Shown: piece by piece, positions 54,421 through 56,342 of the stretch
Position numbering within the stretch: position 1 is the first letter of the stretch
Layout of the letters: each line of letters opens with the position of its first letter
Assembly (NCBI RefSeq): GCF_044324875.1
Contig: NZ_CP172185.1
Length of the DNA stretch: 64,000 bases
Source of the DNA: Escherichia coli
GTDB lineage: Bacteria > Pseudomonadota > Gammaproteobacteria > Enterobacterales > Enterobacteriaceae
Reading direction: 5' to 3' (one strand)
Position numbers and translations under genes: made by a program
Notes under the pieces: generated by a model
The model's input: the letters and a program-made list of their open reading frames with translations, nothing else
What the model was told of the DNA's origin: nothing
Databases searched by the model: none

Positions 54421-54525
54421 AACTCCTGAGCAGGCGGCACTATGCCGCTTTCATAGGAGTTCTGAATGCTGGTGCTTTCTGTATGGCATAACCATGCCTC
54501 TAACGGTTAAGTGCCTGCAGCACAT
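54421..54525. repeat. ~105 bp hairpin-containing repeat, copy A (overlaps the 3' end of the higA-like gene)
   Basis: ~90% identical to copy B at 56238-56342; contains an imperfect long hairpin. Confidence 0.6.
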
Positions 54526-54790
54526 GTTGCGGATCATTGGCAATCGCTCGCAGCAAAGCCTTTGCAGGCCCAGTCGGTGAACGTCGCCCCTGCTCCCAGT
54601 TACGCAACGTGTCTACGCTTACGGAAATAAGTTCGGCAAATTTAGATTGTGACAACCCTGAAGCGCGGCGTATTTCTTTGATTTTCATAGCATCAACTTC
54701 AAAAGTCCGTGAAGGGTGTCGCGTTCCTTCAATAATTTCATTCATCTGGGCCATGCTGTGAGTCAACCGCTCAAAAAGTGCCTTATCCAT
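54500..54790 (-). CDS. XRE-family HTH antitoxin (HigA-like)
   Basis: 96 aa; C-terminal HTH (IRRASGLSQSKFAELISVSVDTLRNWEQGRRSP); start codon abuts the upstream toxin stop. Confidence 0.75.
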   Translation of the reverse strand: MDKALFERLTHSMAQMNEIIEGTRHPSRTFEVDAMKIKEIRRASGLSQSKFAELISVSVDTLRNWEQGRRSPTGPAKALLRAIANDPQHVLQALNR

Positions 54791-55102
54791 TTACCACCTC
54801 GTATTTAACAACCGGAGCATTGATTTTTCCTGGGGAGACAGATCATCTTTAATACCCTTACGATAAATAAGCAGTAATCTGATCTCATAATGTTTAACCT
54901 GATGAAAGTAAATAACCCTGACACCAGCACGTTTCCCCTTTCCTCCTGACACCCATCGAACCTTTCTTAACCCACCAGTTTCAGGTATTACCTCACCATA
55001 GTCAGGATTCAAGGCCAGGAAAAACTGAAAACGACTGAATTCATCGTCGGTCAGCAGTTTTTGAACATCTTCAGTAAAAATTTCCGTTTCGATGAAGAGC
55101 AT
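54791..55102 (-). CDS. RelE/HigB-family toxin-like protein
   Basis: 103 aa; toxin-first gene order with the adjacent HTH antitoxin; basic C-terminal half. Confidence 0.7.
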   Translation of the reverse strand: MLFIETEIFTEDVQKLLTDDEFSRFQFFLALNPDYGEVIPETGGLRKVRWVSGGKGKRAGVRVIYFHQVKHYEIRLLLIYRKGIKDDLSPQEKSMLRLLNTRW

Positions 55103-55219
55103 AATTATACGCCATTGGCTTAGAGTAACAATCCTTTTTGTACGTCATTGACGTACCCTTGAAACCACTAGCTTACTGATAGTGCTCCAGCAAAACCACG
55201 TCTCTGCCGGGTTTGTCTT

Positions 55220-55246
55220 TACATTTGCGAGGCGCTTTCCAGATTT
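55220..55246 (+). repeat. intergenic repeat motif, copy 3
   Basis: tacatttgcgaggcgctttccagattt, ~75 bp upstream of the hydrolase start. Confidence 0.45.
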
Positions 55247-55318
55247 TTCACGCCCGTGAATTTCCCTGTATCCATCCAGCAAAAACGGGTGTATAAAACT
55301 GTACATTCATACAGCAAA

Positions 55319-56239
55319 ATGAGTTCTACTATGGCACTGGAAAAAGGAATTGCAGAGTTAGTCGAAGAGTTTATCGCTGCGGGTCGCCCCTCATCGCGTC
55401 AACAAAGTATTGCGCAGCGCAGGGAGGGCTATATCGCCAGCGCTGTCCTTGCGGGTGAGACAGAAACGCGGGTAGATATTCAGACTATCGAACTTGAAGG
55501 GATGATCTTACGAATAGTGTCACCGCTGAATGCCCCGACATTACTCCCGACGATAATTTATTACTACGGTGGCTGTTTTGTTAGCGGCGGGTTCGCAACT
55601 CACGACAACCAGCTGCGCCAGTTAGCCTATTACGGGCAATGTCGGGTTATTGCCGTCCAGTATCGGCTGGCACCGGAACAGACTTTCCCCGCCGCCCATG
55701 ATGATGCGCAACGAGGTGCAGAATTAGTCTGGCAACACGCCGAACGACTCGGCGTTGATAAACAACGGATAACTCTTGCCGGTGACAGTGCGGGCGGACA
55801 TCTGGCGCTGGTAACTGCTTTGCGATTAAAGCGTGCTGGCGAGTGGCAACCGGCACAACTCATCTTAATTTATCCCATGCTTGATGCGACTGCGCATTTC
55901 GAAAGCTACATACGCAATGGTCACGATTACATCATCACACGCGACACTTTACTGAGCGGCTTTGAGATGTATCTGCCAGGCATTGAACGCAGGCATCCTG
56001 AAGCCAGCCCTCTTTGGCGCGATGATTTCAATGGCTTGCCACCTGTACATATCATTACCGCTGAATACGACCCACTTTGCGATGAAGGTGAAGCGTTGTA
56101 TCACCGCATGACAGGGCAAGGAGTGCAATGCACCTGCCAACGCTACCTTGGCGTTATCCACGGATTTTTTCAGTTAGGTGGTATCAGTGAGGCTGCGCGA
56201 TCGGCGCTGCGGGATGTGGCCTGGAGAGCGGGAAGGTAA
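55319..56239 (+). CDS. alpha/beta-hydrolase-fold esterase/lipase (Aes / hormone-sensitive-lipase family)
   Basis: ORF 55256-56239; oxyanion-hole motif YYYGGCF and nucleophile elbow GDSAGGHL; start at ATG 55319 or 55331. Confidence 0.75.
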   Translation: MSSTMALEKGIAELVEEFIAAGRPSSRQQSIAQRREGYIASAVLAGETETRVDIQTIELEGMILRIVSPLNAPTLLPTIIYYYGGCFVSGGFATHDNQLRQLAYYGQCRVIAVQYRLAPEQTFPAAHDDAQRGAELVWQHAERLGVDKQRITLAGDSAGGHLALVTALRLKRAGEWQPAQLILIYPMLDATAHFESYIRNGHDYIITRDTLLSGFEMYLPGIERRHPEASPLWRDDFNGLPPVHIITAEYDPLCDEGEALYHRMTGQGVQCTCQRYLGVIHGFFQLGGISEAARSALRDVAWRAGR

Positions 56240-56342
56240 CTCCTGTGAAAGCGGCACTATGCCGCTTTCACAGGAGTTCTGAATGCTGGTGCTTTCTGTA
56301 TGGCTTCGCCATGCCCCTCGCAGCTAAGTGCCTGCGCACATC
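56238..56342. repeat. ~105 bp hairpin-containing repeat, copy B (between the convergent hydrolase and SopB-like genes)
   Basis: Perfect 17-bp stem ctcctgtgaaagcggca / tgccgctttcacaggag with a 3-nt loop, then a sequence shared with copy A. Confidence 0.6.

Follow-up and report, generated by a model that had tools for sequence, protein, structure and literature searches.

Quasipalindrome-associated template-switch mutation, in which a cluster of changes in one arm perfects an imperfect inverted repeat, is a mechanism that has been characterised in E. coli (PMC7202029). Palindromes between genes are also familiar from the ERIC, REP, BIME and MITE repeats, families with tens to hundreds of copies scattered over many loci and species, and from intrinsic bidirectional terminators. 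Here, we analyzed a 64,000-nucleotide stretch of the E. coli contig NZ_CP172185.1 (assembly GCF_044324875.1), hereafter called the window, in which a segment of about 105 bp with a long hairpin is present twice, as copy A (54421-54525) and copy B (56238-56341). Our results make it probable that the two copies are diverged versions of one gene-end-plus-spacer segment, which were brought together by the joining of alternative cassettes. The repeat is ordinary genome mosaicism, and is neither a mobile element nor a small-RNA family.

The two copies and the haplotypes that carry them

A repeat search of the window revealed a direct repeat of 98 nt (54421-54518 and 56238-56335) that is ungapped and 88% identical, and blastn stretched it to 54421-54525 and 56238-56341, with 105 columns, 87.6% identity and a single 1-nt indel. 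The expected count of a 20-mer common to both copies was 0.00 in 100 shuffles, and thus the similarity is far beyond chance. A block of 33 nt is identical between copy A and copy B, and the right part of copy B shows ~24% divergence from copy A. The copies are ~1.8 kb apart and flank, as direct repeats, a cassette of a putative toxin gene, the antitoxin-type gene nadS and a hydrolase gene.

Copy A occupies what we regard as the native context of the segment. Read on the minus strand, the repeated unit consists of the last 26 nt of nadS, followed by the entire 84-nt spacer between nadS and ORF70 (a small minus-strand open reading frame [ORF] at 54203-54415) minus its final 5 nt, which is the distance from the end of copy A to the ORF70 ATG. 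The nadS stop codon and the last ~7.7 codons occupy 54500-54525, a small hairpin in the spacer (GGCAT-AACC-ATGCC) lies at 54485-54498, and the 41-nt quasipalindrome is found at 54421-54461, where the outer 7-8 bp and the inner 6-7 bp are paired and the interior is mismatched. The 3' arm of this palindrome carries an AGGAG on the minus strand, 7 nt upstream of the ORF70 ATG. Copy B is a diverged allele of the same segment. Its start overlaps the hydrolase stop codon (TAA, 56237-56239) by two bases, and it sits between two convergent ORFs, the hydrolase (55331-56239, plus strand) and an ORF of 617 amino acids (56408-58261, minus strand). In copy B, the palindrome (56238-56278) forms a perfect stem of 19 bp around a CTA loop, and the far end of the copy is a decayed remnant of the nadS 3' end (56317-56341, minus strand), in which TAG has become GAG with loss of the stop codon and a 1-nt deletion has shifted the frame; it would have encoded ...VLQALSR. 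The first-pass annotation had described most of this layout, i.e., two copies of ~105 bp, copy A overlapping the end of a higA-like gene and copy B located between convergent genes, and these points agree with our results apart from a copy B end at 56341. It had also assigned the Shine-Dalgarno (SD) sequence of the next ORF to copy A, a role for which the AGGAG appears well placed, and a perfect stem with a 3-nt loop to copy B; the stem is indeed perfect, and its length is 19 bp and not 17.

The C-terminus of NadS, DPxxV(I/L)xAL, is kept across genera, as seen in homologues from Salmonella, Citrobacter, Kluyvera and Enterobacter. Therefore, the nadS end in copy A is native. The toxin-nadS pair with the divergent hydrolase is also found between fabY and fdhE in Salmonella and Citrobacter, and this synteny, together with the conserved C-terminus, indicates that the nadS fragment in copy B, and in the haplotype II described below, is a scar. 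The hairpins located 3' of nadS in Salmonella and Citrobacter are unrelated to the E. coli spacer, and the noncoding part of the element is therefore specific to E. coli. A haplotype without nadS (L021) retains only the core of the element, to ~54490, in front of ORF70, and the core was always found upstream of ORF70 or an ORF70 remnant. Thus, the element is a composite of the nadS 3' end and the ORF70 upstream region.

The element was found in 3,369 of 5,426 complete E. coli genomes, almost always once and at most twice (median 1); a third "place" per genome was the palindrome matching itself on the opposite strand and not a real copy. Every match that we inspected was at the yiiE-fabY locus, between fdhE-yiiE and fabY(yiiD)-dtd. 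K-12 MG1655 is without the element, owing to a deletion equivalent to 53898-58158 of the window. Four "plasmid" matches (NZ_CP134663.1, NZ_CP141089.1, NZ_OL790696.1 and CP061233.1) are chromosome-sized, at 1-5 Mb, and such PLSDB records are evidently chromosomes or chromosome fragments that inflate the count of plasmid matches; true plasmids had no copy of the element. There were 0 matches in viral contigs, and phage genomes gave matches only inside ORF70 and none to the element. An exact 21-mer from the invariant part was confined to E. coli among 100,044 species (one genome each), with one exception, a 445-bp contig of 0.76x coverage filed under Micromonospora craterilacus (L008, NZ_POTY01000570.1). 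This contig carries an O103-type allele and is a probable E. coli contamination. Altogether, the complete E. coli genomes, plasmids, phages, viral contigs and GTDB species representatives yielded no further copy beyond yiiE-fabY, and this distribution, at a single locus without copies in other replicons or species, excludes a dispersed or mobile repeat family. A search of the literature on yiiE, small RNAs and NadS found nothing on this element.

Pairwise blast and junction-specific searches defined the haplotypes at this locus. Haplotype I reads yiiE ... element - nadS - toxin - hydrolase, then 55-65 bp of unique terminator-like sequence and fabY, and was present in 2,309 genomes by junction search. 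Haplotype II, as in O157:H7, reads yiiE ... element - 617-amino-acid gene - fabY and accounts for ~730 genomes by difference, or 754 when genomes in the 90-95% identity band are counted. Haplotype III, that of the window, reads element A - nadS - toxin - hydrolase - element B - 617-amino-acid gene - fabY (329 genomes). The remaining class, with no element, includes the K-12-type deletion and comprises ~2,057 genomes.

The sequences at the three junctions connect these haplotypes. After the hydrolase stop, haplotype I reads GGTAACTCC followed by GGACC (in longer form, GGGAAGGTAACTCC followed by GGACCAGGG), and the element start in haplotype II reads CAAAACTCC followed by TGAGCAG (CATAACAAAACTCC followed by TGAGCAGCGG). 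Strain E-1246, of haplotype III, reads GGTAACTCC followed by TGAGCAG (GGGAAGGTAACTCC followed by TGAGCAGCGG). The hexamer AACTCC is common to haplotype I (L003, 6819-6824) and haplotype II (L002, 4001-4006) and corresponds to 56238-56243 of the window. Therefore, haplotype III consists of the left side of haplotype I and the right side of haplotype II, joined within AACTCC; the sequences of both parents are known, and they are identical over the short stretch that contains the junction. The copy B of E-1246 differs by 1 base from the single copy of O157, and 1 base separates haplotype II strain M160133 from the window's copy B over the right part of the segment. The 12% divergence between copies A and B is in line with the deep allelic divergence of the locus, where the yiiE region is 84-87% identical between strains. 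These matches and the depth of divergence suggest that the copies are old alleles stacked in tandem, and not the product of a recent duplication or transposition.

The events that could have produced this arrangement may be outlined as follows. Haplotype I would represent the arrangement that is syntenic with Salmonella and Citrobacter, and in haplotype II the 617-amino-acid gene would have replaced the nadS body, the toxin gene and the hydrolase gene, leaving a nadS 3' scar. Haplotype I DNA would then have been joined to a haplotype II chromosome by illegitimate recombination at AACTCC, which is shared by the sequence just past the hydrolase stop and the left edge of the palindrome, giving haplotype III. 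The toxin-antitoxin-hydrolase cassette would thereby have come to be flanked by two diverged alleles as direct repeats. In a sub-lineage, a later change would have turned the imperfect left arm of copy B into an exact match of its right arm and so created the perfect 19-bp hairpin; this change was likely a quasipalindrome correction, with a template switch inside one molecule as it was replicated.

Origin of the perfect hairpin in copy B

As DNA, the copy B stem has a predicted folding free energy of -23.6 kcal/mol (z = -11.9), versus -11.4 kcal/mol for the copy A palindrome. The 41-nt palindrome was recovered in seven allelic forms, of which the window type alone is perfect. The right arm, TGCCGCTTTCA(C/T)AGGAGTT, hardly varies across these alleles, and none of the variants of the left-arm interior (GAGCAGG, GGGCAGG, GAGCAG-, GCACAGG and GAACAGG) matches it. 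The left arm of the window type, GTGAAAG, is the exact complement of the invariant CTTTCAC of the right arm. The perfect form was found in 120 of the 329 haplotype III genomes; the others have an imperfect, O157-like form with an identical junction, and the imperfect form is seen both in haplotype III strain E-1246 and in haplotype II O157.

Relative to the commonest imperfect allele, GAGCAGG, which is also that of copy A, the window type has three changes, all of them at mismatched positions and each creating a Watson-Crick partner. The chance that three independent substitutions would do so is ~4e-5 by our estimate, (3/19 x 2/18 x 1/17) x (1/3)^3. Thus, the changes are clustered in one arm, each restores complementarity, and the imperfect ancestral state is documented. 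Judged by the mutation pattern, the arm bears the signature of a template switch at a quasipalindrome, and the perfect hairpin is most likely a mutational by-product.

Neighbouring genes and other rearrangements

The cassette between the copies contains three genes. The product of nadS (54500-54790, minus strand), an XRE/MqsA-like helix-turn-helix (HTH) antitoxin-type gene, scored 60.4 bits against the NCBIfam equivalog NF041265, for which the cutoff is 60. An ORF of 103 amino acids (54791-55102, minus strand) abuts nadS with zero gap and encodes a putative RelE/HigB-like toxin; its only family matches were phrog_5869 and a weak one to Pfam PF06296 (i-E 0.009), and PADLOC gave no match. The alpha/beta hydrolase is hormone-sensitive-lipase/Aes-like. 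In the gap between hydrolase and fabY, Salmonella and Citrobacter (L009-L014) carry a second module, which is either a pair of a HigB_toxin (PF09907) gene and an HTH gene or a ParD-like antitoxin gene, and the fabY-fdhE interval therefore collects toxin-antitoxin genes across genera.

The 617-amino-acid ORF, the cassette gene of haplotype II, is intact in the window and is restricted to E. coli and Shigella. Its product had zero sequence matches in Pfam, NCBIfam, PHROG, PADLOC and PDB. In RefSeq relatives the ORF is split into two coding sequences, one named "transposase" and the other a pseudogene. It contains CKSAKDRT, a possible counterpart of the CX5R motif at the active site of phosphoinositide phosphatases of the SopB/IpgD type.

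On the other side of the element, ORF70 encodes a small Cys-rich protein (phrog_4499, E 8e-14) and is annotated in some RefSeq genomes. A presence/absence polymorphism of 394 bp (53968-54361) removes most of ORF70 from the O157, O103 and K-12-type alleles, in which just the first ~18 ORF70 codons are left beside the element. The low identity of the yiiE region (52594-53380) between E. coli strains is an unusually deep, mosaic divergence, and it extends to the comparison of the window with another haplotype III genome that is 98.5% identical further right. Immediately to the left of the yiiE region, the window has an ORF for an IS3-type, OrfB-like transposase (51795-52517, plus strand), which was absent there in the compared strains. 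We also noted a 14-codon plus-strand ORF (MLVLSVW...) located 3' of AGGAG in both copies (54466-54510 and 56283-56327), with equal length and stop position in each. It is probably not a gene and was rejected as one, since every A/B difference inside it is non-synonymous, a type I toxin would be longer and less polar, and there is nothing downstream for it to lead.

Two further rearrangements touch the element. In L021 (781-3165), three unrelated genes, for proteins of 421, 175 and 178 amino acids, replace hydrolase, toxin and nadS and abut the element core; none of the three had a firm Pfam match. In strain ECNB21-M121 (L005, 5001-5120; ~54472 in the window), the IS5-family insertion sequence ISKpn26 is inserted in the element at CTAG, and a deletion beside it runs into the 617-amino-acid gene.

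Alternative explanations and comparison with known systems

Several points weigh against the joining of cassettes as the source of the two copies. The order of events is drawn from extant haplotypes and not from a phylogeny, so haplotype III could be older, and haplotype II might derive from haplotype III by recombination between the two copies. Within haplotype III there are two distinct copy B alleles, which calls for either later allelic recombination or two origins at one junction. Among the homologues, no intact nadS with the copy-B-type 3' end (...ALSR) was found as a donor of the haplotype II scar, though the ending itself is present in other genera. In addition, some allele pairs show stronger conservation of the ~60-nt core than of ORF70 beside it (95% vs 74%), which could mean function instead of mosaic ancestry. 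Were haplotype III ancestral, the nadS-end region would have been duplicated in tandem long ago and the copies would then have diverged, with haplotype II arising by homologous deletion between A and B and haplotype I by loss of copy B and the 617-amino-acid gene. The single copy of O157 does look like a hybrid, A-like in its left flank and B-like further right, and the 33-nt identical block could support such a RecA-dependent deletion. However, haplotype I carries its 55-65 bp of unique sequence with a terminator-like hairpin of its own and is not a simple deletion product, haplotype II also lacks the 394 bp (53968-54361) that haplotype III has, haplotype I is the form syntenic with other genera, and the left edge of copy B coincides with the microhomology to haplotype I. 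We therefore regard an ancestral haplotype III as quite unlikely. A small mobile intergenic repeat of the MITE, REP or ERIC kind, or a site-specific recombination site that shuttles cassettes, would account for the palindrome, for the different cassettes that adjoin the element in different strains and for the IS5 insertion and several rearrangement junctions within ~100 bp. Such a repeat is at odds with the single locus, the lack of copies in phages, viral contigs and true plasmids, and the restriction to E. coli bar the Micromonospora-filed contig. Moreover, the palindrome is internal to the unit (its first 41 nt), a nadS fragment forms the other end, and the flanks showed no target-site duplication. 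A site-specific system would be expected to cross over at one point, but the junctions lie at 54421, ~54480-54490 and 54525 in different haplotypes. This possibility is very improbable. An integron attC-like or dif-like site was rejected because junction positions vary between haplotypes.

The conservation of the core bears on another explanation, that of a cis-acting module, of RNA or DNA, that is functional and has been retained in both copies, either as a terminator or 3'-end stabiliser (bidirectional in copy B) or as an ORF70 promoter and 5' untranslated region (5'-UTR) with an SD-occluding stem. Consistent with this, the core hardly varies between alleles, allele pairs with just 74% identity in ORF70 are 88-97% identical in the element, AGGAG lies inside the stem, and both strands fold more stably than shuffled controls (z -2.2 to -6.5). 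Yet a scan for consensus promoters and terminators made no call at copy A or copy B, and the promoter-like match TTCAGA-16-CATAGT on the minus strand, found by eye, is weak (8/12) and under the scan threshold. The copy B stem is followed by CTGAATGC on the plus strand and ACCTTCCC on the minus strand, with a T/U run on neither side, and a 5'-UTR role is void at copy B, where ORF70 is lost. On the minus strand, the copy A stem is followed by TTTTACTAT, a marginal U-tract that was not called as a terminator; two of the U residues of this tract (UUUUACUAU, minus strand) lie within the stem. Covariation among 12 alleles was not beyond chance, as 348 of 500 shuffles reached the observed score and a single pair showed a double change. 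Only 1 of the 12 alleles forms the interior pairs of the long stem, and a stem-breaking C-to-A change in L021 and L022 is uncompensated. A functional module in both copies is thus unlikely. The best functional inference is that the copy A stem-loop would mark the 3' end of the toxin-nadS transcript and sequester the SD of ORF70. Copy B is probably a passenger, because ORF70 and the U-rich tail are lost there, and its 19-bp stem, located right after a stop codon, may incidentally protect or stabilise mRNA 3' ends. At least five independent junctions or sharp divergence steps fall within ~100 bp of the core. It is conceivable, if doubtful, that the ~60-nt core is both functional and fragile, i.e., an ORF70 promoter and 5'-UTR with an SD-occluding stem and also a hotspot at which hairpin DNA promotes cassette exchange via breaks or template switches; the conservation of the core and the clustering of junctions could equally be explained by a mosaic ancestry in which recombination had its breakpoint where ORF70 starts.

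The first-pass annotation had proposed that copy B acts as a bidirectional terminator and that the repeat is a mobile intergenic element, a small RNA or the scar of a duplicated gene 3' end. The first proposal is not supported by the sequence, where T/U runs and scan calls are missing, and the perfect stem is recent and confined to the 120 genomes. A mobile element does not fit a repeat with one locus and no more than two copies per genome, or its absence from phages, viral contigs, true plasmids and other species. For a small RNA, we found no Rfam 15 family match at gathering thresholds in the whole window, and at E<=10 the only local matches were spurious microRNA models matching the hairpin; neither promoter and terminator calls nor covariation supported one. 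The duplicated gene end came closest of the three readings of the repeat, as copy B does contain a frameshifted nadS 3' remnant without its stop. A bidirectional terminator-like hairpin of textbook form, AAAAGGTTTTC AGAT TGAAAACCTTTT, was observed between hydrolase and fabY in haplotype I strains (L003, 6825-6889); in haplotype III, copy B and the 617-amino-acid gene are found in its place.

With the joining of alternative cassettes as the preferred explanation, the locus offers a natural example of quasipalindrome correction and a microhomology junction in which both parental haplotypes are still segregating, and it could help studies of template-switch mutagenesis or of toxin-antitoxin cassette turnover. 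Homologous deletion between the direct repeats is expected to remove the toxin-antitoxin-hydrolase cassette occasionally. Two cautions follow for the reading of such sequences. The stacking of two old alleles of one spacer can mimic a conserved, hairpin-bearing, two-copy "element", and a perfect stem of 19 bp, however eye-catching, can owe its existence to a recent accident of mutation and not to selection.

Compared with described systems, copy B resembles the quasipalindrome template-switch mutations of the Lovett laboratory reporters (PMC7202029) in that a cluster of changes in one arm perfects an imperfect inverted repeat and the imperfect state is found in sister genomes; unlike the selected reversions of those reporters, the hairpin is a natural polymorphism fixed in ~120 sequenced genomes, and its mechanism is read from the mutation pattern. 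The junction resembles microhomology-mediated illegitimate recombination, with both parental junctions in the population, a common stretch of 6 nt and a direct repeat as product, whereas the copies here are 12% diverged, their parents being old alleles, so that they look like members of an element "family"; the event itself is deduced. Copy B shares with intrinsic bidirectional terminators a GC-containing stem-loop between convergent ORFs, in the same place where haplotype I has its textbook example, but its stem is without an A-tract or T-tract on either side. Finally, the element is like ERIC, REP, BIME and MITE repeats in being ~100 bp long, intergenic, palindrome-containing and near transcribed regions, and is unlike these dispersed families in having 1-2 copies at one E. 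coli locus.

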